A stretch of DNA of 30,377 nucleotides from a virus. Lineage: Duplodnaviria > Heunggongvirae > Uroviricota > Caudoviricetes. The stretch lies in IMG/VR virus record IMGVR_UViG_2654587686_000023. The stretch is one strand, 5' to 3'. This document shows, piece after piece, positions 1,369 through 22,322 of the stretch. The position numbers and the translations under genes are program-made. The notes below the pieces were generated by a model that saw only the letters and a list, made by a program, of their open reading frames with translations, made no database searches and was not told the DNA's origin. Numbering within the stretch: position 1 is the stretch's first letter; each line of letters begins with the position of its first letter.

Positions 1369-1444
1369 GCCGATATAGCTCAGTTGGTAGAGCAGCGCAT
1401 TCGTAATGCGAAGGTCGTAGGTTCGACTCCTATTATCGGCACCA
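1369..1444 (+). tRNA. thrW: tRNA-Thr, anticodon CGT (thrW-type)
   Basis: 76-nt cloverleaf-compatible sequence GCCGATATAGCTCAGTTGGTAGAGCAGCGCATTCGTAATGCGAAGGTCGTAGGTTCGACTCCTATTATCGGCACCA with T-loop GGTTCGA, anticodon loop CATTCGTAATG and genomic CCA end; lies directly downstream of proA as in E. coli. Confidence 0.93.
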
Positions 1445-1446
1445 TT
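1428..1446. repeat. attL core: 19-bp 3' end of thrW (TCCTATTATCGGCACCATT), first copy of island direct repeat
   Basis: Identical 19-mer recurs at 22304-22322; the first copy is part of the tRNA gene with an integrase gene immediately downstream. Confidence 0.85.
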
Positions 1447-1461
1447 CAAACATCTCCCCAA

Positions 1462-1547
1462 GTCTACTAAAGTCTTTCAAAACCCCTTATAATCCGCGTA
1501 TTAAAGCCCCGTTCGTCTTTTGACGTCTACTAAAGTCCCTCAAAATC
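1462..1547. repeat. Two direct copies of a 23-bp motif GTCTACTAAAGTC(T/C)(T/C)TCAAAA(C/T)C (1462-1484, 1525-1547); candidate integrase arm-type/accessory sites
   Basis: Direct repeats seen in sequence between attL core and int start; function is inferred. Confidence 0.5.
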
Positions 1548-1556
1548 TACGGTCAG

Positions 1557-1580
1557 ATGGGGGTACTTATGGGGGTATTT
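1557..1580. repeat. ATGGGGGTACTTATGGGGGTATTTG, tandem GGGGGTA motifs (inverted copy GTACCCCC at ~1600-1608); candidate integrase arm-type sites
   Basis: Near-identical ATGGGGGTACTTTTGGGGGTATC occurs at 22220-22242, just inside the other island end. Confidence 0.55.
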
Positions 1581-1609
1581 GCTGTTCGGTTTAGTGGAGG
1601 TACCCCCAA

Positions 1610-2824
1610 GTGAAACTCAATGCCCGTCAAATAGACACAGCCAAGCCAAAAGAGAAGGCTTACAAGCTGACCGATGGTGGCGGTTTGTATCTCTTGGTAA
1701 AACCTAATGGAGGTAAATACTGGCGACTTAAATATCGTGTAGCTGGTAAAGAGAAGCTATTGGCACTAGGTGTGTATCCTGAGGTTACTCTAGCCGATGC
1801 TCGGGCAAAACGTGAAGATGCGAAAAGAGGTATCGCTGGTGGTATCGATCCGATGGAAGCGAAACGAGAGGAAAAGATTGCCCGGGAAACGCAGTTAAAC
1901 AACACCTTCAAAGATATTGCCCTTGAGTGGCACAGCAGCAAATTAAAAAAATGGTCTGATGGTTATGCTTCAGACATCCTCGAAGCCTTCAACAAAGATG
2001 TGTTCCCTTACATTGGCAAAAAACCCATCGCCGAAATCAAACCACTTGAACTTCTGAATGTGCTGCGTCGCATCGAGGGGCGCGGTGCTACAGAAAAAGC
2101 CAAAAAAGTGAGGCAACGGTGCGGGGAAGTTTTCCGCTATGCAATAGTCACTGGTCGCGCAGAGTATAACCCTGCACCAGACCTTACTAGCGCGATGCAA
2201 GGCCATGAATCTAATCATTACCCTTTCCTTACAGCCAAAGAATTACCTGATTTTTTCAAGGCATTGTCCAGTTACTCAGGAAGCGCATTGGTTGTTATGG
2301 CGGCTCGTCTACTGATTATCACCGGCTTGCGGACTGGCGAACTACGTGGCGCATTATGGGATGAAATTGATTTCAACAAGGCTATCTGGGAGATACCCGC
2401 TTCACGTATGAAAATGCGGCGGCCTCATATTGTGCCATTGTCTGAGCAGGCTCTTTCGCTTATTGGGAAGATTAGAGAAATAACAGGCAATTACCCTCTT
2501 ATGTTTCCCGGGCGCAATGATCCAAGGAAAACAATGAGCGAGGCCAGCATAAACCAAGTGTTTAAGCGCATTGGCTACGCTGGACGTGTAACTGGTCATG
2601 GGTTCCGGCACACTATGAGTACGATTTTGCATGAGCAGGGCTATAACACCGCGTGGATAGAAACGCAGCTCGCTCACGTTGATAAGAACTCAATTCGTGG
2701 CACATACAACCATGCGCAATATCTGGATGGAAGGCGGGAGATGCTTCAATGGTATGCCGACTATATGGATTCTCTCGAGCATGGCGGAAATGTGGTGCAT
2801 ATGGTGTTTGAAAAACACGCATGA
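1610..2824 (+). CDS. int: P4-family tyrosine integrase (GTG start)
   Basis: 404-aa ORF adjacent to the tRNA; N-terminal arm-binding-like region (KLTDGGGLYLLVKPNGGKYWRLKYR) and C-terminal catalytic region with HGFRHT and RGTYNHAQY motifs typical of P4-like integrases; GGAGG 9 nt upstream of GTG. Confidence 0.9.
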   Translation: MKLNARQIDTAKPKEKAYKLTDGGGLYLLVKPNGGKYWRLKYRVAGKEKLLALGVYPEVTLADARAKREDAKRGIAGGIDPMEAKREEKIARETQLNNTFKDIALEWHSSKLKKWSDGYASDILEAFNKDVFPYIGKKPIAEIKPLELLNVLRRIEGRGATEKAKKVRQRCGEVFRYAIVTGRAEYNPAPDLTSAMQGHESNHYPFLTAKELPDFFKALSSYSGSALVVMAARLLIITGLRTGELRGALWDEIDFNKAIWEIPASRMKMRRPHIVPLSEQALSLIGKIREITGNYPLMFPGRNDPRKTMSEASINQVFKRIGYAGRVTGHGFRHTMSTILHEQGYNTAWIETQLAHVDKNSIRGTYNHAQYLDGRREMLQWYADYMDSLEHGGNVVHMVFEKHA

Positions 2825-3215
2825 AACAACTGGACAAGTATACAGAGGTTTACTAAAGTATAGGGGAGTAGATTGATAAAAACTCACAGAGGATTGCTAT
2901 TTAACAGTTAGCCCTGGAGAAGGGCAATCGCTCTTTTATAAACGAAGGTGTATTGAGCCTTCTACGTCGCTGACAAAGCGGAATGTTCTTTAAAACTACT
3001 GGATGTCACGCCTAATAGCGTGATCCTGCCGAAATGCAGGGTAGCTCTACCCTTGTGGAGCAAACAAACCAAAACAATCTGACTATCTTTTATAAAAGAC
3101 CGCAATATGTTTTTCATATTGTGGTCTTTGGCGTATTCGACATTTGACGCAAATAAAACTCTCGCCATTCGTTGCAGGAGGGGGTTATTGCGTCATTAGT
3201 ACAGGATATTAATAA

Positions 3216-3419
3216 ATGGCTAATTACAATTCATTAATTCGTCTCTCTGAAGTTCAAAGGCGAACTGGTTATAGCAAAGCATGGATTTATCGTCTTATTA
3301 GTCAGGGGAGGTTCCCTAAACAGGTAAAAATTGGAAGTCGGGCAATTGCTTTTGTTGAGTCTGAAATAGATGAATGGATTGAGAAGTGTATATTAGAATC
3401 TAGAGACGAGGTGGCCTGA
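3216..3419 (+). CDS. alpA: AlpA-family phage transcriptional regulator (small HTH, excisionase-like)
   Basis: 67-aa ORF, sequence pattern LIRLSEVQRRTGYSKAWIYRLISQGRFPKQVKIG characteristic of the AlpA/prophage regulatory protein family; position right after int as usual in P4-like islands. Confidence 0.8.
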   Translation: MANYNSLIRLSEVQRRTGYSKAWIYRLISQGRFPKQVKIGSRAIAFVESEIDEWIEKCILESRDEVA

Positions 3420-3850
3420 TGGAAAAGAAAAACCGCCCATTACAGGCGGCTAATTCAGATATTCGTGTATCTGATGTTACGCCCCTTACAAAATCCCTTC
3501 AAGCACCAAAGCGTACACCGAAAAAGCATCGTGCCAGAGTCTATATGCTGCGTACTGGTATAGAGGGATGGACAGAAAATGACATTCTTCGCTACTGCCG
3601 TCTGTCTTCTGGTCGTAACTATGCAACAGAGTTAGAACGCCAGCTTGGAATCACTCTGGAGCGTATCGACGAAAAGAATCCTGATGGTATCGGAACACAC
3701 CTTCGCTACCGTTTCTCCTGCCGTGGTGATGTTCTGAAAGTGATCACTCATATTAACCATCTTGCGAACATAAATGATCACAACGGACTTTCTCAGCAGG
3801 AAATTGCCGACATTCTGAAACTCTACCCGGACGCGTTTAACGCCGCCTAA
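3419..3850 (+). CDS. hypothetical protein (143 aa), basic N-terminus
   Basis: ORF overlapping alpA stop (ATG within TGATGG), SD-like GAGGTGG upstream; no family recognised. Confidence 0.6.
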   Translation: MEKKNRPLQAANSDIRVSDVTPLTKSLQAPKRTPKKHRARVYMLRTGIEGWTENDILRYCRLSSGRNYATELERQLGITLERIDEKNPDGIGTHLRYRFSCRGDVLKVITHINHLANINDHNGLSQQEIADILKLYPDAFNAA

Positions 3851-3862
3851 CGGAGACTGAAA

Positions 3863-4696
3863 ATGAACATCGAAAAAAGCAGATTAATTTCTGAGGCTGC
3901 CCCTCATCTGAACGCCTCTCTGGGCACAATTAACGGTAATGAATTTGCCGCAATTGTCCCGGTTATTCCTGGTCATATCGGTGGGCGTGAAACCAATATT
4001 GTTAGCGCAAAAGCGTTACACAAAGCGTTGGGCGTGGGAAAAGACTTCTCTACATGGATCACTGATCGCATCTCTGAATATGACTTCACCATTGGGCACG
4101 ATTACTCAGTCCATAAAACAATTTCCCCAAATTTGGGGAAAAGCCCGAATGGCGCGGCTTACAGCAAGATTAAGCAGTCTGGCAGACCCGGCAAAGACTA
4201 TCTGTTAAGTGTCGGAATGGCGAAAGAACTGGCAATGATCGAACGCAATGATCAGGGTCGCGCTATCCGTCGTTATTTCATCCAGTGCGAGGAAGAATTA
4301 CAGCGTAGCGTGCCTGAAATCGCCGCCCGCTATCGTCGCCAGCTAAAAGCCCGTATTAGTGCCGCAAACAACTTTAAGCCAATGTGCGATGCGCTGAATA
4401 TGGCCCGTGCCGAGCAGGGGAAAACGACGCAGCAACACCACTACACAAACGAGAGCAATATGATTTCTCGTATCGTTCTTGGTGGGCTAACTGCTAAGCA
4501 GTGGGCGCGGATAAATGGCTATTCTGGCGAACCTCGCGACCATATGAACGCAGAACAGCTTGAGCACCTCTCATATCTCGAAAGCACCAATATCACGTTA
4601 ATTGATATGGGCATGGAATATGAGCAGCGCAAAGGAGAACTCACCCGCCTGTCGCAACGCTGGCTCGCCAAGCGTCTGGAGGCGGTCCATGTTTAA
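3863..4696 (+). CDS. phage antirepressor-like protein (AntA/KilAC-type domain)
   Basis: 277-aa ORF with GGAG SD; N-terminal and central regions resemble antirepressor/KilAC domain proteins of prophages; call from recalled family features. Confidence 0.65.
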   Translation: MNIEKSRLISEAAPHLNASLGTINGNEFAAIVPVIPGHIGGRETNIVSAKALHKALGVGKDFSTWITDRISEYDFTIGHDYSVHKTISPNLGKSPNGAAYSKIKQSGRPGKDYLLSVGMAKELAMIERNDQGRAIRRYFIQCEEELQRSVPEIAARYRRQLKARISAANNFKPMCDALNMARAEQGKTTQQHHYTNESNMISRIVLGGLTAKQWARINGYSGEPRDHMNAEQLEHLSYLESTNITLIDMGMEYEQRKGELTRLSQRWLAKRLEAVHV

Positions 4697-4871
4697 GCCG
4701 ACAGGAACACCACAACCCCAAAAACGCTACAAAGATGCCCACGGAGCACTCGTTACTGTCGAAAGCGTGTCTCACAACCGAGTGACGTTTTATCGCGACG
4801 GGTATCAATCGCCATGCGTACAACTGCTGGCGCGCTTCATGAAGGAGTTCGCGGAGGTTAACAAATGCTAA
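4689..4871 (+). CDS. small hypothetical protein (~60 aa), start overlapping upstream stop
   Basis: In-frame ATG at 4689 inside ORF 4602..4871, overlapping the stop of the antirepressor gene (translational coupling pattern). Confidence 0.4.
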   Translation: MFKPTGTPQPQKRYKDAHGALVTVESVSHNRVTFYRDGYQSPCVQLLARFMKEFAEVNKC

Positions 4872-5302
4872 CCGTCCAGAAGAAGATATTTTCACTGGCT
4901 GGTATGTCGCCAAAATCCAGCAATATGACAGCAAAGTCTGGCATTAATACAGCATATACAAGCAAAGTTTATCATTTTCTGGTGGTAGGAGCGGATGCCT
5001 TAACTATGTCAGAAATTACGGTCGATGGTGTTAGCGTTGAGAAGGTCGGCGGCTGCGCCAGAGAATTTCTGGTCGTAGATGGCTTTCTCTGCTCGCGTAG
5101 TGACTCCACAAAAACCTTCGTCCACACGCGCGACGTTAACGAAATGAGCGCGATGTATTGTGCATCTGGTGCTTCCAATAGTGAGTTTTCGGAGTCCATA
5201 AAAAAGAGCTTGCCGTTATGCGGCAACACGGTTTATGGTTATAAGGCACCTCATAAAACGGGTGCCGGGATTGGCGTCCTGAAAATTCTGAAGGCGACAT
5301 AT

Positions 5303-5324
5303 GACGCGCCGAGCGTCTTTTTTT
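5303..5324 (+). terminator. Rho-independent terminator (GACGC-GCCGA-GCGTC followed by T7)
   Basis: Perfect 5-bp stem with 5-nt loop followed by seven T residues. Confidence 0.6.
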
Positions 5325-5362
5325 ATGTCGTAGGTCTGACTCACCCATTTTTTGGGCGTTGG

Positions 5363-5370
5363 TGTATAAT
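5363..5370 (+). promoter_or_regulatory. Extended -10 promoter element TGTATAAT
   Basis: TGnTATAAT match ~160 nt upstream of the 5527 gene, just downstream of the terminator; the leader contains a UUCG-tetraloop hairpin (5408-5421) and an 8-bp stem hairpin (5463-5496). Confidence 0.45.
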
Positions 5371-5526
5371 CCAGCGCCTTTGTCAATCAATGGTGGCTCA
5401 GGCGGGGGCTTCTTCGGAAGCGCCGGTATCCTTCAGAGCCGGTTACGCCAACCCTGTCTGGGCTACCACCAGCGAAATTGGCGTTTCCGGTGGTAGCGTA
5501 ACCTGCTATCTGAAGGAGGCTGCCAC

Positions 5527-5721
5527 ATGCTGGCTACTACCCCTACCCAAAAACCGCAATTTATCTGGATTATCGCCGCAGTTCGCCGCGATTGCCCGAC
5601 AATTACCGCCAAAATTCATCATATTGCTGCCGAGTCTGAACGCGATGCTCGCCGTTCTCTGGTGCGCGATCACGTCTGCTTTTTTGCTGGTCGTATCCGC
5701 ATGGAGGTGGCACATGATTAA
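5527..5721 (+). CDS. small hypothetical protein (64 aa); possibly Icd-like small prophage protein
   Basis: ORF with strong SD (AAGGAGG) upstream; Icd-like assignment is only a weak recollection. Confidence 0.55.
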   Translation: MLATTPTQKPQFIWIIAAVRRDCPTITAKIHHIAAESERDARRSLVRDHVCFFAGRIRMEVAHD

Positions 5722-5932
5722 AACCTACGATGTGCATATGGATCCCCTCGAACGCACAAGCCAGATCATCACACTGACAGAAGTGATTAACGACATTCTG
5801 GTGAGCAACTCTCCCTCACGAGACGAAAGACTGAAGGCGTTACTCGCGATATTGGATCTCGCCGTTCGTGACGTTCATTTCCTGCTGGAAGGTGGCGAAA
5901 TGCCAGGAAAAACGGGGGCAACCAATGAATAA
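5714..5932 (+). CDS. small hypothetical protein (72 aa)
   Basis: ATG at 5714 preceded by GGAGGTGG; overlaps the previous gene by 8 nt; this is the credible 3' part of the long 4865..5932 track ORF. Confidence 0.55.
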   Translation: MIKTYDVHMDPLERTSQIITLTEVINDILVSNSPSRDERLKALLAILDLAVRDVHFLLEGGEMPGKTGATNE

Positions 5933-6119
5933 CTCAATTAATGCCCCTCGACTTACGTCCGCACTTCAATTAATCGAGCAAGCAGCGGCTGTCCTGGTTG
6001 CTGTCAGTCTTTCGGCTGAAGAAATGGACGCTGCTGATGTCGTGGATGCGATTAAAGCGTGCTCATCTTTGGTTAACGATGCCCGTGCAGAGCTGGTAAT
6101 TCTTGGGGGTGAAAAATGA
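5925..6119 (+). CDS. small hypothetical protein (64 aa)
   Basis: Internal ATG of ORF 5868..6119 overlapping the upstream stop; typical P4-like small-gene string. Confidence 0.5.
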   Translation: MNNSINAPRLTSALQLIEQAAAVLVAVSLSAEEMDAADVVDAIKACSSLVNDARAELVILGGEK

Positions 6120-6379
6120 ATATCAACTTAATTTATCGTCATCCGTGTGAGCTGGAAATTGAATCATTGCTGGGGCGTGAAGAGCCATATCCAGACACAT
6201 TCACTCCCGCAGATTGCGCGACTGAACGGCTTACCAGAGCGCGCACAGGTCTGGTTCATGTGATGAATGAGATTATTCCCTCGGTGGGAGGGGAACAGGC
6301 GACAGTAATCAATAGCTGGCTACAAAAAGTTACCTCCCTGATAGATATCAGTTTAATCGATGTGGAGAGTGCGAAATGA
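6116..6379 (+). CDS. hypothetical protein (87 aa)
   Basis: ORF with start overlapping upstream stop (ATGA), SD-like GGGGGTGA upstream. Confidence 0.55.
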   Translation: MNINLIYRHPCELEIESLLGREEPYPDTFTPADCATERLTRARTGLVHVMNEIIPSVGGEQATVINSWLQKVTSLIDISLIDVESAK

Positions 6380-6597
6380 CCAACATCCAGCTCATTGAAG
6401 CGCAATGTCGCATCGAACAGGTTCAGACTGTTTTAGGGTTCTGGCTTGAAGGGGCCAGCCCCAGCAACAGAGACAAGTTAATGATTGGCGCGGTTATGTC
6501 ACTGCTCAATGGCGTACCAGAAGCTATTCAGGAAGCAGACGAATTGTTGGGCAAATATGAGTTACAGAATCATTCAGGCGAGGCGAAACATGAATAA
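6376..6597 (+). CDS. hypothetical protein (73 aa)
   Basis: ORF with ATGA overlap to upstream gene and GGAGAG SD. Confidence 0.55.
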   Translation: MTNIQLIEAQCRIEQVQTVLGFWLEGASPSNRDKLMIGAVMSLLNGVPEAIQEADELLGKYELQNHSGEAKHE

Positions 6598-7192
6598 TTT
6601 CTTAACCTTCCATGCAGAAGCAACGCCTGACGGCGTAAACATCATGTACCGCAGCAACGATGGCATGACAGAACGCGTTGAGGCCGTTTCATATATTGAT
6701 GCCGTAAATCGTCTGGATGCCGGGGATTATGACGATAAACCAGATGAAGGTATGTCAATACATCTTGCTATTGCCGATGGCGGCAACCAGGGATATTTCG
6801 ATTACACATCACAGCATAACGTCATTATGTGGAGATGGCTGATCGCAACAGTATTCATGCTGGAAATGAGAGAGGAAAACGGCACTGTCAGCATCATTGA
6901 TGATACTGGCAATCCTTCCGAAGTGGCTGTTTATTCCAACGGCATCGTCGCCATGCCGCTGTATCCAGTAGCAGAGCGCCTCGCTATGGCAAACAACATT
7001 GAGGGCGCGATGATAGAACGTTTTGGCATCGAGTCTGGCACAGAACGCGCCATCATTTTCTACAGAGCCATGATGGATGTGGAACAAGGAGCACTGACTC
7101 CATTTGGTCGTGAAACGCTTGCTGAACTTCACAACAGCTTTATAGCTGAACTGAATGAAAACGGCATGCCAGCGGAACCAGTGACGCACTGA
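6590..7192 (+). CDS. hypothetical protein (200 aa)
   Basis: In-frame ATG at 6590 (MNNFLTFHAE...) overlapping the upstream stop; the longer 6485 start would overlap the previous gene extensively. Confidence 0.55.
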   Translation: MNNFLTFHAEATPDGVNIMYRSNDGMTERVEAVSYIDAVNRLDAGDYDDKPDEGMSIHLAIADGGNQGYFDYTSQHNVIMWRWLIATVFMLEMREENGTVSIIDDTGNPSEVAVYSNGIVAMPLYPVAERLAMANNIEGAMIERFGIESGTERAIIFYRAMMDVEQGALTPFGRETLAELHNSFIAELNENGMPAEPVTH

Positions 7193-7202
7193 GGATGGAG
7201 CC

Positions 7203-7544
7203 ATGATTACTAAAAATTTCCGACTGAATGCGCTGGCAAATAAGTATGCGTCGGCACTGTATAACCACATTACCTCCACCAGCGGCGGGGACTATTTCAT
7301 GGTTCATGCGGACGACAAGGCCGTACGTGTGGAAATCGTCAATGGAGTAAAAGGCGTTCGCAGCCTGATCGATAGCTACACACTGGCTGCCATGAAAGTG
7401 TTCTACCCGCAGTGGGAAACCGTGGGGATCGAGCTTCTTGATCGTTGCGTCACTAAGGACGGATTGACTGACGTCGGGCGTGAGATATGGCAAAGCATGG
7501 TTAATGACATGGGCGCAACTGTAGCGGGAGGTTCTCATGCGTGA
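7203..7544 (+). CDS. hypothetical protein (113 aa)
   Basis: ORF with GGAG SD upstream. Confidence 0.55.
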   Translation: MITKNFRLNALANKYASALYNHITSTSGGDYFMVHADDKAVRVEIVNGVKGVRSLIDSYTLAAMKVFYPQWETVGIELLDRCVTKDGLTDVGREIWQSMVNDMGATVAGGSHA

Positions 7545-7908
7545 AAATGCAGAAATGGCGCTTAGCTCCGCAATCGGAGAGCAGGTGGCAAAGATTGCTG
7601 GTGCTGTGTGGATTCATAACCTTCATTCTACTGGTGAAGAGAAAATGGCAATTCAGACGCCAGAGGGACGCACCATTACTACATCTCTGAAGCCGTCAGA
7701 TGTTTGTGATCTGATTTGCGCATTCATGTACCCAGCAATGAGGACTGTCCACGGCGATAAGTGGAAACTTGCGACAACCGCTGAATTTGATATGTGGCTA
7801 AACAATGATGGCATGCTGACTGATTACGGAATAACCAAGTGGCAGATGCTGGTTAGCCATATCGCAAACGCTATAGACCACGTGGGGTACGGTGATGCGA
7901 AACATTGA
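7537..7908 (+). CDS. hypothetical protein (123 aa)
   Basis: ORF with GGAGG SD, overlapping neighbours at both ends. Confidence 0.55.
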   Translation: MRENAEMALSSAIGEQVAKIAGAVWIHNLHSTGEEKMAIQTPEGRTITTSLKPSDVCDLICAFMYPAMRTVHGDKWKLATTAEFDMWLNNDGMLTDYGITKWQMLVSHIANAIDHVGYGDAKH

Positions 7909-10651: not shown

Positions 10652-10670
10652 GCTTCTTCATGTGCGTAGA

Positions 10671-10798
10671 AAAGGTGTTGGTTCAGTTGGTTCAGTTGGT
10701 TCAGTTGGTTCAATTTGTAAAGAGTATTGTTTTATAAGGATTTTATTCTTTTTATTGAACCAACACTGAACCAACAACACGGTATTTTGAACCAACAC
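10671..10798. repeat. Iteron cluster A: four tandem GGTTCAGTT units (10680-10715) followed by three inverted TGAACCAACA copies (10756-10798); candidate alpha-binding crr/ori-type site
   Basis: Directly visible tandem and inverted repeats immediately 3' of the primase gene; by analogy with P4 alpha binding short iterons in ori and crr (established for P4, inferred here). Confidence 0.6.
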
Positions 10799-11117: not shown

Positions 11118-11149
11118 TGCCACCAGCTACTGAGCGGTGGCATTTTTTT
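11118..11149 (+). terminator. Rho-independent terminator (TGCCACC-loop-GGTGGCA + T7)
   Basis: 7-bp GC-rich stem, 11-nt loop, followed by TTTTTTT. Confidence 0.6.
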
Positions 11150-11244
11150 GTGCTATTTGTTTCATATTTTGCAATTACGATGATGAATATTGCGATTTAT
11201 GAAACTATAATAACTGTTGTTTTATACAGTTCTAAGGGGGCGTT

Positions 11245-13874: not shown

Positions 13875-16591
13875 TGGCACAACTGACAGAAAAACAGAAA
13901 GCCTATTCCCGTCATCTCGATGAAAAATATGGTTTCCCATCAGGGACGATGGAAACATTAGTTGGCAATGAATCTAGTGGTAACGGAAGTGCCGAGTCAC
14001 CGAAAGGAGCTAGAGGATTTGCTCAACTGATGCCCTCAGTAATGAGTGATGCTGGTTATCGTGGAACAGATCCGCGCTCACTGCCATTTGAAAAGCAAAT
14101 GGATATCGCAGCAAACCATCTCAATAAAGGAATGAAGCGATTTGGTGATATAGGTATGGCATTGGCTGGGTATAATTCTGGCTATGCTCGTATTAATGCC
14201 GTAAGAAACGGTAAATCTACACTGCCAGATGAAACGGCTAATTACGTAAGTAAATTTGCAGATGCCGGAATAATCCCTGATGACAGTGAAATCTTGCAGT
14301 TTGCACAAACCAGTCAACATCGCAATCTTCAGCAGCCTGACTACTCAGAGCTTGATAAAGAAATCTCTCAGGTGGGAGATATTTCTGCATGGGAAGCAAA
14401 ACGTCAGCAATTTAAGAACATAGAAGCAGGACTACCAACAGCCAGTTCATGGGAGCAGAAAAGAGCTCATTTTCTCGCCGATGAAAATGCCGGGGAACCG
14501 CAGCAGCAAGTAGCCAAGTCTAACCTTAATCCTGAGATGGAATATCTTTCGCCAGGACTGAAAGCTGCGCCAGAGCAGATGGCCAGAGGGATTGCTAATA
14601 TACCGTTTGATGTAATGGACGCAGGCGTGGGGGTAGTCAATGCGGCGCAATCAGCCGGAGCATGGGCAGCTCAGAAGCTTGGTGTGGGTGATGGTACATA
14701 CACGCCCATATCACCTGTCTTTCGCCCAGTAGACCAACCTACAGATCCATACGCGCAGGCTGGTGAGCAGCTAGCACCTTACCTTATTACAGGATTAGGT
14801 GCAGGAAAGGCAGCTACCGCAGCTTCTTCAGTTGCCAACGCTCCACGTGCTGAACGTGCGGCCACAAAGGTGGCTAGTATGTTGGCAGAAAACCTGCCAG
14901 GTACATTGGTGAACGCCCAAAAGAACGGGCAGATCAGCCCAGAAGACCTAGCAAAAGAGACAGGTATTGGCCTAGCAGGATCGCTAGGAGCACGCGCTTT
15001 AATAAAGAGCGGACAGACAGCCAGTGACGTAATGCGAGATGTATTGCGGAGTAATACAAATCAATCAAGCTATGTGTTAGGGGCAGCAAATACTCTGGAA
15101 ACCGCCAATGATGTATCGAAAGCAGCGCGTTCTGCCGTAGGCCGAGAGCATATCGCATCGCAGGCATCAAACGTCAGAGATGATGTCGCTAAGGCGGCGA
15201 AAATCACTGGTATTAATATCAACACCCTGACGCCTGGAATGCGCTCAGGTAGTCGTGGAATTGCCCAAGCAGAAGGTGTTCTGGCATCAACTCCTGGGAA
15301 TGTTCAGGATGCTCACCTTACGGCCTTCAATGAAATATCCTCAAAGTTGAATAAGCAGTTGTCTGATTTCGGTGCTGAGTCTGGAAGCGCATCAGAAAAA
15401 AGCGCAGCAATTAAAGAGCGCATCATCGCGAGCCTCAGTGATATGAAAACAGCAGAGAATATGGCATGGGCAGAACTGCGAAGCACGATGCCACGCGAAA
15501 GGATGAAAATGAGTAATGGGATGGCTGTCGTCCAAGCAGAAAAAGCAGCCAATGTTCCACTCAGCCCGGAGATGAAACAGTTTCAGGCTGCCAATAACCA
15601 AGGTGGCGGCATAACCTTCGACGGGATGAAGGCATGGCGTGCTAAGTTTGCTGATGCTGAACAAGCAAACACCCGGGCAGGTAAGGCCAATGCCGCCCGG
15701 GTTGCCGGAGAAATGCGCAGAGCTATCACTGATGACATGCGCATCATGGCTGAAAAAGGAAACTTCCTCACAGAATGGCAGAAAGCTAACGATCTCTCTA
15801 AAAGTTACATTATCGCCAAACAAAATGCCGAATCTGTTTTTGGTCGAGATCTCGCATCAGACGCTATGGTAAGAAAAGGTGCCGATACGCTTAAGGCATC
15901 CGCAAACACTGGAACGGGAGCTTTTCACCGTCTTATCTCCGCGCTGCCGGAAGCAGAACGCCAACCAGCAATAGCATCTATTCTTCAGCATGCTGTGGCG
16001 CAGGGAGAGAAGGGAGGAATCGGTGAAGAGTCTGGTATCCAGTATTTTGCCAAGCTCATGACCCAGCAGAATGTAAACGCCATCAGTCGTCATGCGCCAG
16101 ATCTCGGTAGAATGATGAAAGAGTTCGGTGTACTCGCTAAAGCCAGCACCAGACCGCAGCGATACGTAGAGCGCACGGGAAGAACAACTGAGGCTCTCAA
16201 AACGCTCGATTCAGGCCTTCCAAAGATCGTCGGCGTGATTATGAACGGAGTTCAACAGTCAGGTGCGATCGCTGGAGGCTTTGGCGGTGGTGTAATTGGT
16301 TCGATTAGTGGTTTGGTTGCTGGTGGCGCGCTGAGAAATACTGTGGCTAAGATTGGGGCGACAAGAAGTGGTCGATATGCGATAGAGAAAGCCGTTCAGG
16401 AAGCTACAAAAGCAGTGCGCGCAGGGGCATCACCAGCAGCGATCGCCGCAGCAGAGAAACGATTTTCGGCCAATAAAATTGCCATGAAAGCAATTCGTGA
16501 TGCCGTTGGGGCTGAAGAATTCGTGAAACTGACAAGGGCCGGGATTGTAGCTACCCTCAGTGGCATGAAAGATGTTAGCGAATGGGAATAG
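13865..16591 (+). CDS. large protein (908 aa) with N-terminal lytic transglycosylase (SLT) motif; phage internal-virion/ejection-protein-like
   Basis: N-terminal ES...GARGFAQLMPS...AGYNSGY pattern matches the catalytic Glu-Ser and G-L-M-Q/AYN-G signatures of family-1 lytic transglycosylases; rest is Ala-rich low complexity; start overlaps upstream stop. Confidence 0.7.
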   Translation: MAMMAQLTEKQKAYSRHLDEKYGFPSGTMETLVGNESSGNGSAESPKGARGFAQLMPSVMSDAGYRGTDPRSLPFEKQMDIAANHLNKGMKRFGDIGMALAGYNSGYARINAVRNGKSTLPDETANYVSKFADAGIIPDDSEILQFAQTSQHRNLQQPDYSELDKEISQVGDISAWEAKRQQFKNIEAGLPTASSWEQKRAHFLADENAGEPQQQVAKSNLNPEMEYLSPGLKAAPEQMARGIANIPFDVMDAGVGVVNAAQSAGAWAAQKLGVGDGTYTPISPVFRPVDQPTDPYAQAGEQLAPYLITGLGAGKAATAASSVANAPRAERAATKVASMLAENLPGTLVNAQKNGQISPEDLAKETGIGLAGSLGARALIKSGQTASDVMRDVLRSNTNQSSYVLGAANTLETANDVSKAARSAVGREHIASQASNVRDDVAKAAKITGININTLTPGMRSGSRGIAQAEGVLASTPGNVQDAHLTAFNEISSKLNKQLSDFGAESGSASEKSAAIKERIIASLSDMKTAENMAWAELRSTMPRERMKMSNGMAVVQAEKAANVPLSPEMKQFQAANNQGGGITFDGMKAWRAKFADAEQANTRAGKANAARVAGEMRRAITDDMRIMAEKGNFLTEWQKANDLSKSYIIAKQNAESVFGRDLASDAMVRKGADTLKASANTGTGAFHRLISALPEAERQPAIASILQHAVAQGEKGGIGEESGIQYFAKLMTQQNVNAISRHAPDLGRMMKEFGVLAKASTRPQRYVERTGRTTEALKTLDSGLPKIVGVIMNGVQQSGAIAGGFGGGVIGSISGLVAGGALRNTVAKIGATRSGRYAIEKAVQEATKAVRAGASPAAIAAAEKRFSANKIAMKAIRDAVGAEEFVKLTRAGIVATLSGMKDVSEWE

Positions 16592-16741
16592 ACGCTCTAA
16601 CTAACAAAACCATAATAGCCAAGGACGGCATACTGATATTGAGCCAACTATCAAAATTCCATATCACATTACGAGCCTGTGGCTTACATTCGCTTACAGT
16701 GATGATAATTTATAACCACGCAATTCTTAGGTGAGATTATC

Positions 16742-17440
16742 ATGATTAAAAATCTTCTTTTAATATTATCCCTGTCATTATTGGCTGGATGCGTACAAAA
16801 ACCGTTAGTAACGGTCAATGCTTTATCTTCCGGGCAATCTGTCGGTAAGAAGTTCTTGATCATCCCCGCAAGCCAAGAACTTTGGAACACCAAACAGATT
16901 GAATACACTCAAATAGCTACGGTAGTAGCCGCCAGTTTATCAAGCCAAGGATATACACAAGTTAAAGATGAAAAATTGGCTGACCAGGTAATTCTCTTGA
17001 ACTTTTTGAGAAGCGGGGCCATTTCAAATACTCGTAATGTAACCATCCCAATATACGGGCAAACTGGTGTGAGCTCAGCAACAACGTACGGAAACTCGAA
17101 CACCACGTTCAATAGTTATGGTGGTGGCTACGGTACAGCTAATACCACTGGAACGGCAACAACAGTTTATACGCCTACTTATGGAATTACTGGCGCGTAT
17201 AACACAACTGTGACGGACACGTTCTACGGCGCAGGGGTGATACTCCAGTCGTTTGATGCCAAGGCCTATCTCAATAATAGGCAGATTAATATGTTATGGA
17301 AAGTTGGTAGCTCAGTCGTCTCGCAACAGTCTGATGGAATTGCTGATTACAAGGGGTTGGCGAGAATAGCCGCTAGCTATGCCGGGAAAAATACAGAAGG
17401 TGATATAACTTTTAATGTTGACCCTAAAGCACCAAATTAA
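16742..17440 (+). CDS. putative lipoprotein (232 aa), Thr/Gly/Tyr-rich
   Basis: N-terminal signal peptide with lipobox LLAGC (Cys at position 17); followed by a hairpin terminator. Confidence 0.7.
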   Translation: MIKNLLLILSLSLLAGCVQKPLVTVNALSSGQSVGKKFLIIPASQELWNTKQIEYTQIATVVAASLSSQGYTQVKDEKLADQVILLNFLRSGAISNTRNVTIPIYGQTGVSSATTYGNSNTTFNSYGGGYGTANTTGTATTVYTPTYGITGAYNTTVTDTFYGAGVILQSFDAKAYLNNRQINMLWKVGSSVVSQQSDGIADYKGLARIAASYAGKNTEGDITFNVDPKAPN

Positions 17441-17447
17441 CTAATAA

Positions 17448-17476
17448 GCCCGGTACGCCGGGCATTTTGCCCCCTA
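17448..17476 (+). terminator. Rho-independent terminator after lipoprotein gene (GCCCGG-TACG-CCGGGC + ATTTT)
   Basis: 6-bp GC stem/4-nt loop followed by T-rich tract 8 nt after the stop codon. Confidence 0.55.
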
Positions 17477-17624
17477 TTATTCATGAATCGCTTTTTCTAG
17501 AAGGTATGCGACAAACGTTAAGTGACATTGCCTACACATTCGGGGCGGGATTTCAAATCCGCTCCCAGTTGATGGGGCCGTTACAGTACGCGCATATCCG
17601 CTTTATGTGAAACAGGAAGATTTT

Positions 17625-17676
17625 TCTGATATCACTGCCACAGCAAAACACCAATTTCGAGACAAGTACGCGCGCG
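17625..17676. repeat. Repeat copy A: TCTGATAT...ACAAGTACGCGCGCG, (CG)n palindrome
   Basis: 15-mer ACAAGTACGCGCGCG at 17662-17676; same 15-mer also at 17948-17962 and 20654-20668. Confidence 0.7.
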
Positions 17677-17933
17677 AGGGGTATCAGTTGCAAAAAATTT
17701 TGCAACTACGTCCGACCAATACACACACGATGGCGGGGGATACCATAAAACTGTTCTCTACATGAGACAGAGTGGTGGTGATGTGTTGATTATCGGCCTA
17801 TATGCGCACAGGACGCGCTATGACAATGTTTTATGCGGGTACACCAATCACATGTATCTGGTGTGATAAATCGCGTTACATGACCTCTCATGTTGTGCTG
17901 GTGGTTATCACGACGTTCTGAATCTGGCTTTTG

Positions 17934-17962
17934 TCTGATATTTTGCGACAAGTACGCGCGCG
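17934..17962. repeat. Repeat copy B: TCTGATATTTTGCGACAAGTACGCGCGCG (contains 12-bp palindrome TACGCGCGCGTA)
   Basis: Seen in sequence; 29-bp unit shares about 24 positions with copy C. Confidence 0.7.
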
Positions 17963-18299
17963 TAACATCGAAATTATCGGATGGCGTATGTTGGTGGCAA
18001 GATAAAGTCGGCGTAATACAAAGGCGTTACTTGATAGCAGCAAGATTACAACAATGGTTGTTGAATTTGAGCGATGTAAGGAATTGATTTAGGGAGGCGC
18101 TGATGGCTAAAAAGTTCCACTACCAGCGGATGAATGCGCCAGCGATGGCCGTTTGGTAGTAAAAGAGGAGCCATTCCTCAATCAGTTGAATACATTATGC
18201 CAACTAAATGGGTGGGGGCACTGTGTGGGTATTCAGCGGTGACGGTATTTTTTAAGCCAAGGACTATCCGTAGCAGGGGGACTCATTTTGAAATATTTA

Positions 18300-18737
18300 T
18301 CATATGTAACTTATTATTTTAGATAAAGATTTCCAGTTAAAGAAAAAAGTTATCATTGATATAATCAAATATGCCCCTGCGAGTAGCAGGGCATAATAAT
18401 CCAGAGGCAGATTGCTGACAACAGGGGCAAACATCGAGATCATTGCTAATAGGCAGGCTGTGATCAGCGTAGTTCCTGTATCAAAAAGCCCCTCAATAAT
18501 GCCTTTTAGTACTCCGTTACTTTTTAGAGCGCCTACAATTCCCTTTGAACTATCAAAGCTACTTAGCATGGTGACTGATGCCAAAACAAAACCAAAGAGA
18601 ACTCCAGAAATAGTTGAAAGAGCACCAGCAGCCGAAATGACAGCATTGTGATCTAGGTCGTGTAAAAAATGGGCACCAGCAATAGCCATAGCTAGAGCAA
18701 ACAATGACTTGGCAGCAAACAATTTCCGAGAACTCAT
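18300..18737 (-). CDS. small integral membrane protein (145 aa, about four predicted TM helices); candidate effector of a two-gene defence/abortive-infection module
   Basis: ORF with AGGA SD 8 nt upstream; four hydrophobic segments by eye (approx. residues 7-27, 32-60, 87-107, 114-134); 12-bp gap to the upstream gene. Confidence 0.7.
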   Translation of the reverse strand: MSSRKLFAAKSLFALAMAIAGAHFLHDLDHNAVISAAGALSTISGVLFGFVLASVTMLSSFDSSKGIVGALKSNGVLKGIIEGLFDTGTTLITACLLAMISMFAPVVSNLPLDYYALLLAGAYLIISMITFFFNWKSLSKIISYI

Positions 18738-18749
18738 AATGTATTCCTG

Positions 18750-19835
18750 TTACGTTTGACTAACCAAATAGTACTGGGTTAGATACCTAAGGTTGTCATT
18801 CTTTGCTTGTAGCATAGCATTTTTAACGTCAGTATCGGTCGGATACCCATCTGCTTGGATAGGCACCATCTTCTTTACCGTAAGAACTTCGTCTACAAGA
18901 CTTTTCTTCTTTTTATCGCCCTGAGCAACAACATTTGCTTTCTCAAAAGTTAAACGACCATCACCACCAGGGAACTTTTCTAGCATCTCCTTAAGGCTTT
19001 TTTTAACGTCATCCTCAAGCCATCCCTTTGCTTTTCTTTTTAATGGAGAATGTCCGCGTAACGAAATAGTCAGGTGGCTTGAACTGGTGCCTCTGATCAT
19101 CTCAATCATCTGATTCGCGAACATTCCATCGAGTTGATACTGTGCGGCATTGAAGTTTCTTGGGATGGCCACAGAAATCTCGCAGCTTCTTAGATTGGAT
19201 CCAGTTTCGAGTAGTTCTTTGATGCTTTCTTCTTTCCAAATGGCTTCAAAAGAAACAGGGACTCCGCGATCACTGGAGTTGAAAAGAAGGAAGGCTAAGT
19301 CACTATGGCGTGGACCTAAATGATTTAAAGACAATACTAGAATGTCTGTCTGAGGATAATAAATAAAGTATGTACGTTCTGAAAGAGTCTTTGCCCCGGC
19401 TAGAGGGATTTTCTCTTCCACCCACTCTTTATCTGTAATATATGCCAGTGTTGCGCTTTTTCTTCTTCGAGACATGAATCCGAAGTAGGAGCCATCCTCG
19501 GGTGAGATGTCTAGAAAATGAATTTTAAGTTCTCTTTCACCAAAGTCTGCATAGTGGGTCATCTTGAAGTCTTTAGAACACCGATCATAGAGATTTTTAA
19601 AGGCCTCTGCGGTTAACCCCTTGTTACTAGTGCGAATATTCTCAGAGCTTGTGTAAAAGCCCACCCTTACAGATTTCAAACTTTGATCTTTTGGTGCCAC
19701 AGTCATTTGAGCTCCATTGTACTCTGCGATAGTTTTTGCACACCTTGAAATCAAAATCTCCATGTCAGTCACGAGAAAATAACTATGGATGAAACCCATC
19801 AAAGGCATTGAATACAGGTGGCTTTTGAGAATCAT
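18750..19835 (-). CDS. hypothetical soluble protein (361 aa as drawn; alternative start at MTVAPKD... about 43 codons downstream has a better SD)
   Basis: Long ORF on minus strand immediately upstream of the membrane-protein gene; no recognisable catalytic motif. Confidence 0.7.
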   Translation of the reverse strand: MILKSHLYSMPLMGFIHSYFLVTDMEILISRCAKTIAEYNGAQMTVAPKDQSLKSVRVGFYTSSENIRTSNKGLTAEAFKNLYDRCSKDFKMTHYADFGERELKIHFLDISPEDGSYFGFMSRRRKSATLAYITDKEWVEEKIPLAGAKTLSERTYFIYYPQTDILVLSLNHLGPRHSDLAFLLFNSSDRGVPVSFEAIWKEESIKELLETGSNLRSCEISVAIPRNFNAAQYQLDGMFANQMIEMIRGTSSSHLTISLRGHSPLKRKAKGWLEDDVKKSLKEMLEKFPGGDGRLTFEKANVVAQGDKKKKSLVDEVLTVKKMVPIQADGYPTDTDVKNAMLQAKNDNLRYLTQYYLVSQT

Positions 19836-20186
19836 CCTAACCTGGTGACGGTGGTTCGCATATCCTGATGGATGATCAGTGATTAATCAATGCGCCAAGC
19901 AGATGTGTCTATGTGTTTGTTAATCATTGCATGACAGTAGATCGACATGGGAGATCACGTTATATAGTTGAATTGTTAGGATATCCATGCACCGATCAAC
20001 TGACTAGGCTGATGTGCTTTTTAGCAGGTGCCATATAGTAGTTAGGCGGTTCTGTGAAATGATTACTGTTCCAGCATAACTGCGGCATAAAGCGGTGCTA
20101 TATAAGCTATTTGCTGGCGGATTTAGTCTTCACCGTTCATATATGTAGTGACTATTTGACAGAGTGTTAGTTCACGGACACTTTTT

Positions 20187-20293
20187 GTTGGTTCAAAATG
20201 AGTTGATGTTGGTTCAATATTTTAGAAAAAACACAATAAAAACAACGCTCTTTACAAATTGAACCAACTGAACCAACTGAACCAACACCTTTT
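20187..20293. repeat. Iteron cluster B: two TGTTGGTTCA copies (20187-20216) plus three inverted AACTGAACC-type units (20258-20284); inverted partner of cluster A
   Basis: 20248-20293 is the reverse complement of 10671-10724 apart from one 9-bp unit (both arms include AAAGGTGTT and CAATTTGTAAAGAG). Confidence 0.7.
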
Positions 20294-20322
20294 TGCTTAT
20301 CTATATAATCTGAGAGGCAGAA

Positions 20323-20604
20323 ATGATAAGGGACAGGAAAGCTGAAGAGCTGGAGTCAAAAGGGCTATACCGGAGAGCTGCCGCACGATGGATGGAAGTC
20401 ATGCTGTTATGCAGCGAGGACGATGATCGGGAATGGATAAAGCGCCGCCGTGAAACGTGTCTGGAGAACGTGAAGCGCCCGCCCGTGAAGGTTGAGGAAT
20501 TTGGCGACCTGCATAAAGCTGTTACCGAAACGCAACACCGCATGGGGATAGCGCAACCGAACGGTAACGCCTTCCGGTTAAATGGCGGCAAGAGGCAAAG
20601 GTAG
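20323..20604 (+). CDS. PerC-family transcriptional activator-like protein (93 aa)
   Basis: N-terminal KAEELESKGLYRRAAARWMEVM and REWIKRRRETC pattern resembles PerC/Pch-family proteins common in P4-like islands (recalled similarity). Confidence 0.65.
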   Translation: MIRDRKAEELESKGLYRRAAARWMEVMLLCSEDDDREWIKRRRETCLENVKRPPVKVEEFGDLHKAVTETQHRMGIAQPNGNAFRLNGGKRQR

Positions 20605-20639
20605 ACCACCAGAGGGAAATCATCCTCTGGCTGGCGGTT

Positions 20640-20668
20640 TCTGGTATTTCGGAACAAGTACGCGCGCG
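20640..20668. repeat. Repeat copy C: TCTGGTATTTCGGAACAAGTACGCGCGCG (14-bp palindrome TACGCGCGCGCGTA)
   Basis: Third copy of the ACAAGTACGCGCGCG 15-mer. Confidence 0.7.
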
Positions 20669-20901
20669 CGTAGCACCCAATCGGTGAGGAAATAGCGGCG
20701 ACCTGAATGGTCAAAATCACAACGCAGCTATCCCCGTAAGCAGCGCTTAACGGAATAGCAGTAACCTGAATCCAGTGGGGAGGGGGTAGTCAAATCTCTA
20801 CAGCCCTGACTATCCGGGACTGCCCGCCCCATCGTTTTTTTATACCCGCGAAAAATGAAATTTAATCCGGGCGTGTTTCATCCTTCCAGAGGGTATGACG
20901 T

Positions 20902-21087
20902 ATGACACCACGCGAAATAGCCTTATTGACCATCGCCAAACTTGAGCACGGAGGCCACCAGCTTACACAGGCAGATCAACGGGAGATAGAACGATCAGTT
21001 AATGCCGATATAGCCCGGCGCGACAGGTTCCGCGAAATGATGCGAGCACCTGCCTACCAGTGGAAGAAGCCAGCGCCGCGCAGGTAG
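20902..21087 (+). CDS. small hypothetical protein (61 aa)
   Basis: ORF with AGAGGG SD-like sequence upstream. Confidence 0.45.
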   Translation: MTPREIALLTIAKLEHGGHQLTQADQREIERSVNADIARRDRFREMMRAPAYQWKKPAPRR

Positions 21088-21207
21088 ATATGGGATTATT
21101 CCACATGTAACTTATGCGTATTAAGCAAATTTCCTTTATTCACCTTTACAGAATTGTGAGTACGTCAGTATCGTTATCCTTCCGATTCGCATTTATTCAG
21201 GATTTGC

Positions 21208-21750
21208 ATGTACCAGCTAAAGATAACCATCCGAGACAGCAAACCACCTATATGGCGGCGTGTGCTGGTTCCAGAGCAAATCCCCTTTAGTAAACTTCAT
21301 GCCGTGATCCAGTTAGCTTTTGGCTGGAATGACGAACACCTGTATATGTTCGAGAAAGGGCGTAAAGGTGATCCAGGTAGCGAGTATCGCGTATGGGGTG
21401 AGGATGAAAGCATGGGTAACGCGGCAATCACGCCACTATGGGCGGCGCTCCAGAATGAGGGTGACAAGCTGGTTTACACGTATGACTTTGGCGACTGGTG
21501 GGATTGCGTCATTGTGCTGGAGAAGCAAACACACGATACGAGTAATCAGCCCATTAGCTGCCTGCGTGGGAAAGGCACCACCCCGGCGGAAAACTCAGGC
21601 GGCTTGCATGGTTACAATGAATTGCTATTACAGGCCAGAGAGTCTGATAATCCTGAGCAGGCCGAGATCCACAATTTCCTGATGCTGGATATTGAACGCC
21701 GGGTTTACGACCTGAGCCGCATCAACGACAGATTGCAGGCTATTAACTGA
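21208..21750 (+). CDS. pRiA4b ORF-3-like family protein (180 aa)
   Basis: N-terminal YQLKITIRDSKPPIWRRVLVP...LHAVIQLAFGW...HLYMF pattern matches the plasmid pRiA4b ORF-3-like domain (recalled). Confidence 0.65.
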   Translation: MYQLKITIRDSKPPIWRRVLVPEQIPFSKLHAVIQLAFGWNDEHLYMFEKGRKGDPGSEYRVWGEDESMGNAAITPLWAALQNEGDKLVYTYDFGDWWDCVIVLEKQTHDTSNQPISCLRGKGTTPAENSGGLHGYNELLLQARESDNPEQAEIHNFLMLDIERRVYDLSRINDRLQAIN

Positions 21751-22102
21751 CCCGCATGTATTCACCTGATATTGCGTTGTCAGCGCCGCCAGTATCGCGC
21801 ATAACAGCGCACTGACCGGGTAAACCGTAGCGCACGACCGTTGCGTTAGTATCACCGCCGCGCCGTATCTGGCGCGATTCATACACTGTCACCCGCTCAA
21901 GCAGTCCACCAGCAACCATGCTTTCCAGTGTGCGCCGGGTTGATTCGAGCTGGTGACGCTTATCGAACGACACCATGCCATGAAGCAGGTAGGCCACACC
22001 CGACACATCGAACGGCGGCGCACCAATCTCACCAGTCACCCATTCGAGGTTATCCGGTTCAAAGTAGCTAAGTATCTCTTTTTTGCGACTGGTCATTCTC
22101 AT
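21743..22102 (-). CDS. hypothetical protein (119 aa)
   Basis: ORF on minus strand, overlaps 3' end of the preceding gene by 8 nt. Confidence 0.45.
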   Translation of the reverse strand: MRMTSRKKEILSYFEPDNLEWVTGEIGAPPFDVSGVAYLLHGMVSFDKRHQLESTRRTLESMVAGGLLERVTVYESRQIRRGGDTNATVVRYGLPGQCAVMRDTGGADNAISGEYMRVS

Positions 22103-22219
22103 GGCTGGCTGATTCCTTATTGTGGGATAGCACTATCATACAATAAGTGGGTTAAAGGGAGAGCGTTACCGCCTGATATGCTGTATGAATAACAACCAAA
22201 TTTCAGGGGCGGAAAAAGA

Positions 22220-22242
22220 TATGGGGGTACTTTTGGGGGTAT
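22220..22242. repeat. ATGGGGGTACTTTTGGGGGTATC, right-end copy of the GGGGGTA arm-type motif
   Basis: Near-identical to 1557-1580. Confidence 0.55.
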
Positions 22243-22303
22243 CTATAAAAAATGAACAATAAAAAAGGCAACAAAAACAAAGCTTATCGCCTATGTGTAT
22301 TGT

Positions 22304-22322
22304 TCCTATTATCGGCACCATT
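22304..22322. repeat. attR core: second copy of TCCTATTATCGGCACCATT
   Basis: Exact 19-bp repeat of the thrW 3' end (1428-1446). Confidence 0.85.

Follow-up and report, generated by a model that had tools for sequence, protein, structure and literature searches.

A thrW-integrated island as a possible satellite of phi92-like phages, in tandem with an EcCIMP1-type element

The PLE (phage-inducible chromosomal island-like element) of Vibrio cholerae, a compact island in the chromosome that encodes an integrase and a replication module of its own, is a satellite of the virulent myovirus ICP1, which it exploits and with which it has cis sequences in common. Capsid-forming phage-inducible chromosomal islands (cfPICIs) carry a full head module, comprising portal, protease, connectors and small terminase, together with AlpA and Pri-Rep, and have temperate helpers. 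The DNA analysed here, IMG/VR record IMGVR_UViG_2654587686_000023 (30,377 nucleotides, the whole of which is referred to as the window), carries two islands one behind the other at the tRNA gene thrW. The first, element 1 (1447-22303, + strand), is a phage-inducible chromosomal island (PICI) of the EcCIMP1 type, 20.9 kb in length; the second, element 2 (22323-30284, + strand), is the left ~8 kb of an integrative island of ~12.6 kb. Judged from its sequence, element 2 may be a satellite of virulent myoviruses of the phi92-like group (Stephanstirmvirinae), or at least a parasite dedicated to them, a reading to which we would assign a probability of about 50%. It is in this second island, as a self-contained unit with phage links, that the interest of the locus lies and not in the array; tandem occupancy of thrW is ordinary, well-known biology.

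Element 2 is most like the PLE-ICP1 pair in its proposed function, but the resemblance would be a functional analogy only. The two are unlike in integrase type and in host, element 2 has capsid, tape-measure and tube-initiator genes of its own, and no PLE-specific families were present among its Pfam and PHROG matches, in a search that included no direct comparison to PLE references. With the cfPICIs it shares the form of an integrative island of similar size and an HK97-fold capsid protein of its own, but the capsid is all that it has of the cfPICI head module, with tail-core genes taking the place of the rest. It has nothing in common with satellite P4, and it does not match the marker sets tested for cfPICIs, PICIs or plasmids. 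Neither a satellite of phi92-like or rV5-like phages nor this island as a distinct element is described in the searchable literature, subscription-only papers lying outside it.

Since element 2 forms the thrW-proximal part of a known pathogenicity island (PAI) of strain APEC O1, its DNA has long been in the literature as part of VAT-PAI. VAT-PAI, attributed to Parreira & Gyles 2003 as cited in PMC6956023 and PMC7545054, consists of 33 open reading frames (ORFs) between proA and yagU, of which vat is ORF27 (PMC6956023), and PAI-APECO1-thrW is listed as a 20-kb island with 41% guanine plus cytosine (GC) in APEC O1 (PMC7545054). In both papers VAT-PAI is treated as one pathogenicity island, with no separate core-bounded element and no phage link. 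The corresponding region of the APEC O1 genome (295,044-314,967; locus L032) is made up of element 2, 12.6 kb long, core-bounded and with its own integrase, and a separate vat-vatX island of ~7 kb that has a truncated P4-type integrase; the present analysis therefore splits VAT-PAI into two independent elements.

The 19-mer TCCTATTATCGGCACCATT, which spans the 3' end of thrW, is the core repeat at which both islands are bounded. Islands 94-96% identical to element 2 are found in the chromosomes of 179 out of 5426 complete E. coli genomes, counting those in which at least 80% of the 8-kb part in the window is covered; element 1 is found in 48. In strain MS15052 element 2 occupies 12,557 bp between two thrW cores and its far end encodes, on the opposite strand, a 425-aa tyrosine integrase with a DUF6538 N-terminus followed by SAM-like and catalytic domains. 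Both cores also flank the island in five IMG/VR loci, while CUWW11, with three cores, runs from thrW through an element 1 variant and an element 2 variant to the chromosome. An integrase of its own and cores at both ends are seen in MS15052, CUWW11, APEC O1 and the IMG/VR loci; the window holds the left core only. In NCTC10973 element 2 lies inside srsR, between 52-bp srsR duplications, and the integrase of this copy is 97-99% identical to those of the thrW copies (L001, 30935-32387, compared with L002, 31135-32576).

Relatives of element 2 exist in Citrobacter and Enterobacter, and at other chromosomal sites in Klebsiella pneumoniae and Serratia, where the small recombinase, Rep-like protein, ~120-aa protein, capsid protein, ~62-aa ORF, ~620-aa protein and integrase all recur. 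The recurrence of this compact layout in Klebsiella and Serratia shows that element 2 represents a conserved family of 12-13-kb islands and is not debris. Its replication module appears to consist of six 22-bp iterons followed by an AT-rich stretch (24662-24790, +), a putative replication origin, and an HTH_36 replication-initiator-like protein (26435-27124, +; Pfam HTH_36, PHROG replication initiation families), which is 32% identical to protein inny_184 of phage inny. No primase was detected in element 2, where this Rep-like protein and the iterons are found.

Five independent observations tie element 2 to phi92-like phages, and two of them come from the structural genes. The major capsid protein of element 2 (29228-30256, +) has the HK97 fold and belongs to the lambda gpE family (Pfam Phage_cap_E, E 5e-15); it gives a full-length match to the phi92 gp124 entry of the PDB, with an E-value of 2e-7. 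Beyond the capsid gene MS15052 has, in order, a 67-aa ORF, a 609-aa tape-measure-like protein, a 237-aa Dit-like protein and the integrase. The Dit-like protein is 59-62% identical to phi92 gp135, which is annotated as the tail tube initiator, and the 609-aa protein is 34-36% identical to the tape-measure proteins of phi92-like phages, rising to 53% over the first 66 residues. In phi92 gp134 is followed by gp135, the same gene order as in the tape-measure/Dit-like pair of element 2.

Two more concern a 40-bp block (23450-23489, +) that matches DNA of phages phi92 and VEcB at 40 of 40 positions. The left terminal repeat of phi92 is annotated as 343 bp long, and the block lies across its inner edge, 26 bp of it falling within the repeat and 14 bp outside; it is kept at the same near-end genome position in related Klebsiella and Citrobacter phages. 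Some other copies of element 2 (L012 and L018) have a different allele, which shares with the corresponding locus of the sister genus Phapecoctavirus an unbroken match of 24 bp and, over 81 bp, an identity of 81.5%; in the records searched this Phapecoctavirus-type match usually falls within a few hundred bases of the record end. As the second allele matches the genome ends of Phapecoctavirus, the allele carried by the island tracks the phage genus. The block could be read as a micro-ORF in element 2, phi92 and FKP3, but an in-frame stop in Phapecoctavirus and the non-periodic pattern of the substitutions favour a cis element over a micro-ORF.

The fifth observation is a patch of ~240 bp (26204-26445), made up of a ribosome-binding site (RBS), a 55-aa gene (26216-26383, +) and the next RBS, which is 99.2% identical to phage muut and ~99% to inny and has sharp alignment borders. 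The 55-aa product is identical to inny_185 at 53 of 53 residues. In island and phage alike the patch is followed by an HTH_36 paralogue, and the 55-aa gene is absent from VEcB. From the identity and its borders, it looks as if island and phage had recently exchanged the patch within one cell.

If element 2 is such a satellite, it would excise by means of its own integrase and would then replicate from the iteron origin with the Rep-like protein. The capsid, tape-measure and tail-tube-initiator proteins would be those of the island itself, and its copy of the helper's terminal-repeat boundary would let the packaging or regulatory machinery of the helper recognise it; a genome of 12.6 kb with its own capsid protein would suit a small capsid, as is known for P4. 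It is also conceivable, at slightly less than even odds, that element 2 founds an undescribed satellite family of the Enterobacterales, hidden in the 'VAT-PAI/thrW island' and distinguished by terminus copies specific to the helper genus and by replacement of head and tail core, which would be the E. coli counterpart of PLE-ICP1. The literature describes phi92- and rV5-like phages as large virulent myoviruses isolated for phage therapy or biocontrol against pathogenic E. coli. Element 2 is present in ~3% of complete E. coli genomes. Should it mimic the phage terminus and make rival structural proteins as proposed, it might change the host range of phages and the success of therapy, and might open a new path for gene transfer.

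Several observations weigh against a satellite role. An exact-pattern search for the excised attachment-site (attP) junction gave no hit in metagenome contigs and one in a viral contig, and no circle. The single viral contig proved to be a lysis-module prophage lying beside element 2 at thrW, that is, a tandem array, and was rejected as a circle. No particle-derived sequence of element 2 was found among the IMG/VR capsid matches or the metagenome and viral contigs; the IMG/VR capsid matches were themselves discarded as evidence of packaging, as they bear IMG genome-style names of uncultivated viral genomes (UViGs) and were apparently predicted from isolate genomes rather than from virion metagenomes. 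Pfam and PHROG scans of the window and of MS15052 detected no portal, terminase, protease, excisionase or AlpA in element 2, and the capsid protein is only ~22% identical to phi92 gp124. When element 2 was compared at high sensitivity with the 1.8 kb that surround the VEcB terminus, the 40-bp block alone was returned and no second terminal-repeat boundary, and the block could have a regulatory function, or belong to a micro-ORF, instead of being a packaging site.

The copy in the window is incomplete. Homology to element 2 ends at 30284, and the remainder of the window (30285-30377, +) is the end of an IS10 insertion sequence (IS), a 100% match to an IS end, which sits 28 bp past the stop codon of the capsid gene and runs off the window. 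It is the outside end of IS10 (CTGATGAATCCCC...), and Rfam places RNA-OUT at 30330-30377 on the minus strand. Because the window ends within this IS10 copy, element 2 is cut short here by the window edge and also carries an IS within it, and the insertion may have disabled it. The third core of the array and the integrase of element 2 are presumed from relatives that are 94-96% identical, the view here ending at 30377; no complete E. coli genome matches the window as a whole.

Alternatively, element 2 might be a decoy or defence island directed against phi92-like phages, in which diverged structural proteins and a mimic of the phage terminus poison the assembly or packaging of the helper, without transduction of the island. 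We consider this unlikely as a full account, but defence or decoy action is an alternative to be reckoned with, and element 2 might well combine it with life as a satellite; the PLE acts both as a satellite and against its phage, so that the two readings partly overlap. That the structural homologues are a selective subset and no full module, with portal and terminase undetected, would be in keeping with a decoy, as would the failure to find sequence from particles. Element 2 has, however, a full integration module as well as a replication module, and intact attachment (att) repeats are present in many lineages and at several sites, which implies repeated horizontal transfer. Nor did element 2 match any family of PADLOC.

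It is improbable that element 2 is a decayed and immobile prophage remnant which adjoins element 1 by chance. Phage-like structural genes, the low GC and the IS10 in this copy might be expected of such a remnant, but the nearest phage relatives are virulent and do not integrate, and both the size of 12-13 kb and the gene order are conserved across E. coli, Klebsiella and Serratia. Moreover, the integrase is intact and conserved at the level given above, the core repeats are exact, and at least two sites are occupied in E. coli (thrW and srsR), each with clean target duplications.

The window begins in proA (1-1254, +; Pfam Aldedh), a conserved chromosomal flank whose 5' end is cut by the window start; downstream of it lies an intact thrW, encoding tRNA-Thr(CGU) (1369-1444, +; found by ARAGORN, Rfam tRNA 71.8 bits), the sole tRNA gene that ARAGORN called in the window. 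The proA-thrW locus is ~98% identical to that of 5380 complete E. coli genomes. The 19-bp core occurs exactly twice in the window, as an exact repeat: at 1428-1446 (+), which is the left attachment site (attL) of element 1, and at 22304-22322 (+). No further copy was found in the window even when 3 mismatches were allowed, and 100 shuffles gave a mean of 0.00. Homology to element 1 stops at the second core and homology to element 2 begins exactly at 22323; GC drops from 0.539 in the proA-thrW flank to 0.475 in 1447-22303 and again to 0.383 in 22323-30285. With two integrations at the same 19-bp core, the middle copy is at once the right attachment site (attR) of element 1 and attL of element 2.

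The first-pass annotation of this DNA had placed two unrelated elements in tandem at thrW, the first of them bounded by exact 19-bp repeats of the tRNA 3' end and the second much more AT-rich and with no tyrosine integrase in view beyond attR. All of this agrees with the present results. The only recombinase beyond attR is a 179-aa serine enzyme, and the integrase of element 2 is not visible because it lies at the far end of the island, past the end of the window. For the same annotation, a place of element 2 in the conserved core chromosome of related strains would have spoken against the tandem reading, and it suggested a search for the empty site. Element 2 is not core, as only the 179 genomes noted above carry it, and the empty site, in which the thrW core is followed directly by AAAATCAAAGAG (a reconstructed junction), is present in 948 of the 5426 genomes with up to 100% identity.

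The arrays at thrW are varied. CB209 has element 1 (100% identity) and then a dnd/dpt island, MP1 has EcCIMP1 and then the vat island, and in APEC O1 thrW is directly followed by element 2 and then by the vat island. In MS15052 prophage-type genes and other material precede element 2, which again is followed by the vat island; in L031 a prophage precedes element 2, and in L021 the order is reversed, with element 2 ahead of the left end of an element-1-type island. The window's junction between elements 1 and 2 is also present in 9 complete genomes. Either element can occur alone, in other company and in reverse order, so that the two are independent, and the varied arrays together with the empty sites bear out the first of the two origins that the annotation had offered, that thrW is a hotspot for tandem islands. 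The site is among the most frequently used tRNA-gene (tDNA) sites of E. coli (PMC7545054), and EcCIMP1 has already been described beside another island there.

The integrases of the two elements are just 24% identical, over the catalytic domain. On the sequence evidence the region is very probably a tandem array produced by two separate site-specific integrations, in which unrelated integrases used one core in the 3' end of thrW. The integrase of element 2 would recombine at the same 19-bp core as that of element 1, and a third core would be expected ~4.3 kb plus one IS10 length past the end of the window. Two orders of arrival fit the sequence equally: element 1 may have entered the intact tRNA gene when element 2 was already in place on its right, or element 2 may have entered the attR core of element 1.

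As its second origin the annotation offered another route for element 2, such as recombination with a plasmid or phage-plasmid, in place of integrase-driven entry into thrW. The iterons, the Rep-like protein and the resolvase-type recombinase do resemble a plasmid backbone. The junction, though, falls exactly at the 19-bp core, the full copies are core-flanked and have a tyrosine integrase, and the Pfam and PHROG scans found no partition or transfer genes in element 2. Just 3 plasmid records match, all in part; one does so with 14% coverage and the other two are ~4.8-4.9 Mb long, a size suggesting chromosomes filed as plasmids. This origin is thus very hard to credit. Equally implausible is a composite island of ~33 kb in which both elements move together, the internal core being a relic: the junction does recur in the 9 genomes, and recombination between the outer cores could in principle excise both, but each element occurs alone, with other partners and in reverse order, CUWW11 pairs different variants of each, and the two are sharply unlike in GC and gene content.

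Some variation was seen at the integration end of element 2. Of the 13 integrase substitutions specific to the srsR copy, 10 fall within residues 161-209, and the core-adjacent attP sequence, over ~50-70 bp, is wholly different between the two kinds of copy (52-bp srsR repeat as against 19-bp thrW core). Going by these sequences, the srsR copy looks like a recent retargeting of the integrase. The sequence GTGTTTTAC, directly before the thrW core at the attR side, is common to element 2 and to the unrelated lysis-module thrW prophage (L031, 6646-6730; L002, 32530-32576), and this hints that the attP core region is shared or exchanged among elements that integrate at thrW.

The serine recombinase of element 2 (invertase/resolvase type, 179 aa; 23526-24065, - strand; Pfam Resolvase, E 1e-33; PHROG DNA invertase) lies in a replaceable cassette (23517-24193), which is missing, swapped or IS-disrupted in other copies. 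It is replaced by ~385 bp in L013, L017, L019, L022 and L023. As a result of the swap, the 40-bp block becomes part of a longer ORF in L017 (127 aa) and in L014; L014 has an extra IS3-family insertion in the recombinase cassette, and no recombinase is annotated in that region of APEC O1. Inverted repeats at 23405-23420 and 24167-24182, which enclose the recombinase and the 40-bp block, were considered as the ends of an invertible switch, and this was rejected as none of 15 related copies showed an inversion.

Directly upstream of the capsid gene is a gene for a 120-aa protein (28847-29209, +), a neighbour that is kept in the Klebsiella and Serratia relatives. Its AlphaFold2 model (predicted local distance difference test score 62) has as its top fold matches the ~123-aa chains in the Sf14 and Bas63 capsid entries, with an E-value of 0.12 that is not significant, and it has no sequence similarity to phi92 gp123. 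Going by the model it is a possible, though unproven, candidate for a decoration protein. The remaining ORFs of element 2 (52-136 aa) have no family matches. A motif resembling GCGTTACAGGAGGTTTTAGG occurs in the Klebsiella and Serratia relatives (L025, ~5923-5957; L027, ~5130-5197) and at one VEcB locus (~104,499-104,566), with E-values of ~0.001-0.004, and a related repeat, CTGTAAGCG, is present at 28118-28157 of the window. The GCGTTACAGGAGGTTTTAGG-like motif, weak but recurrent, could be a shared operator or RBS region.

Element 1 has a close described counterpart. EcCIMP1, a PICI located between proA and yagU in E. coli MP1, was described in 2025 in ISME J (PMC11773190); experiments there showed helper-induced excision and transfer, the helper being the P22-like phage Kapi1, whose induction sets off an excision that depends on the island's Int and AlpA (PMC11773190). 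Element 1 is 98.1-98.3% identical to EcCIMP1 over 1-18007 of the window and 98.8% over 20164-22322, and copies 100% identical to it lie at thrW in CB209, KP63 and FDAARGOS_1259. The two islands share their site (proA-thrW...yagU) and the order int, alpA, antA, ash, primase, ejection genes, perC and pRiA4 ORF3. They differ in that element 1 has a cassette at 18008-20163 in place of the alpA_1 region of EcCIMP1, and in the downstream neighbour, which is element 2 here and the vat island in MP1, where the arrangement is also a tandem.

The P4-type tyrosine integrase of element 1 (1610-2824, +; Pfam Arm-DNA-bind_3, Phage_int_M, Phage_integrase) is followed by an AlpA regulator/excisionase (3216-3419, +; Pfam Phage_AlpA, E 7e-20), at the position of which the annotated relatives CB209, CUWW11 and MP1 have WP_000035054.1, the MP1 copy being the alpA of EcCIMP1. 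Genes for AntA and Ash (the latter by Pfam) are also present, and within the ash region Rfam finds a C4-type antisense RNA like the P4 CI RNA (5386-5473, +) and an isrK RNA (5246-5323), the scores in this region being 79.9 bits for RF01695 and 67.8 bits for RF01394. A primase-helicase (7892-10651, +; Pfam Zn_Ribbon_Prim, Toprim_3, DUF927) comes next. It is followed by homologues of P22 gp14, gp7, gp20 and gp16 (11423-16591, +; Pfam DUF2824, P22_gp7, Inj_translocase, SLT), ejection-protein genes that are labelled 'DNA transfer protein' in PHROG and are present in EcCIMP1 as well; the gp16 homologue is a gp16-like transglycosylase. A PerC-like regulator and a pRiA4 ORF3 protein are also encoded.

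Element 1 thus has a tyrosine integrase at its end, direct att-core repeats, AlpA downstream of the integrase and a primase module, in addition to its identity and synteny with EcCIMP1. The first-pass annotation had called it P4-like. That description holds for the P4-type integrase, the Ash/epsilon protein, the alpha-type primase and the CI-type antisense RNA, all of which have their like in satellite P4. It does not extend further: the ejection genes are P22-like, there is no link to a P2-type helper, and no Sid, Psu or Delta families were found when 29 ORFs of 53-919 aa, selected from 1447-22303, were scanned, not exhaustively, with Pfam and PHROG. By sequence, element 1 is better classed as an EcCIMP1-type PICI than as a P4-like element, and is a new variant of the published EcCIMP1. 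The ejection-protein genes would fit a P22-like helper. The homologues of gp14, gp7, gp20 and gp16, which in P22 belong to the ejection apparatus (injectosome), are full-length, and the variant island of CUWW11 has ejection-protein genes too.

The cargo cassette in which element 1 is unlike EcCIMP1 (18008-20163, - strand) has no alignment to MP1. Its ORFs, of 145 and 361 aa (18300-18737 and 18750-19835, - strand), match phrog_8552 and phrog_7651, both of unknown function, and PADLOC gave no match for the cargo ORFs of either element. The variant island of CUWW11 has, at about the position of this 2.2-kb cargo swap, an Abi-family gene that lies upstream of perC; the cargo region of element 1 may be a hotspot for defence cargo.

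The ejection and cargo module is bracketed by arrays of the 9-mer GTTGGTTCA (10670-10733 and 20239-20293), which are inverted with respect to one another (48 nt, 96% complementary) and are likewise present in EcCIMP1 of MP1; they may be candidate binding sites for a regulator. Just inside the two ends of element 1 there are further repeated motifs, one pair at 1462-1482 and 1525-1545 and another at 1557-1578 and 22221-22242. These repeats, GTCTACTAAAGTC... and ATGGGGGTACTTATGGGGGTAT, are probably arm-type binding sites of the integrase.

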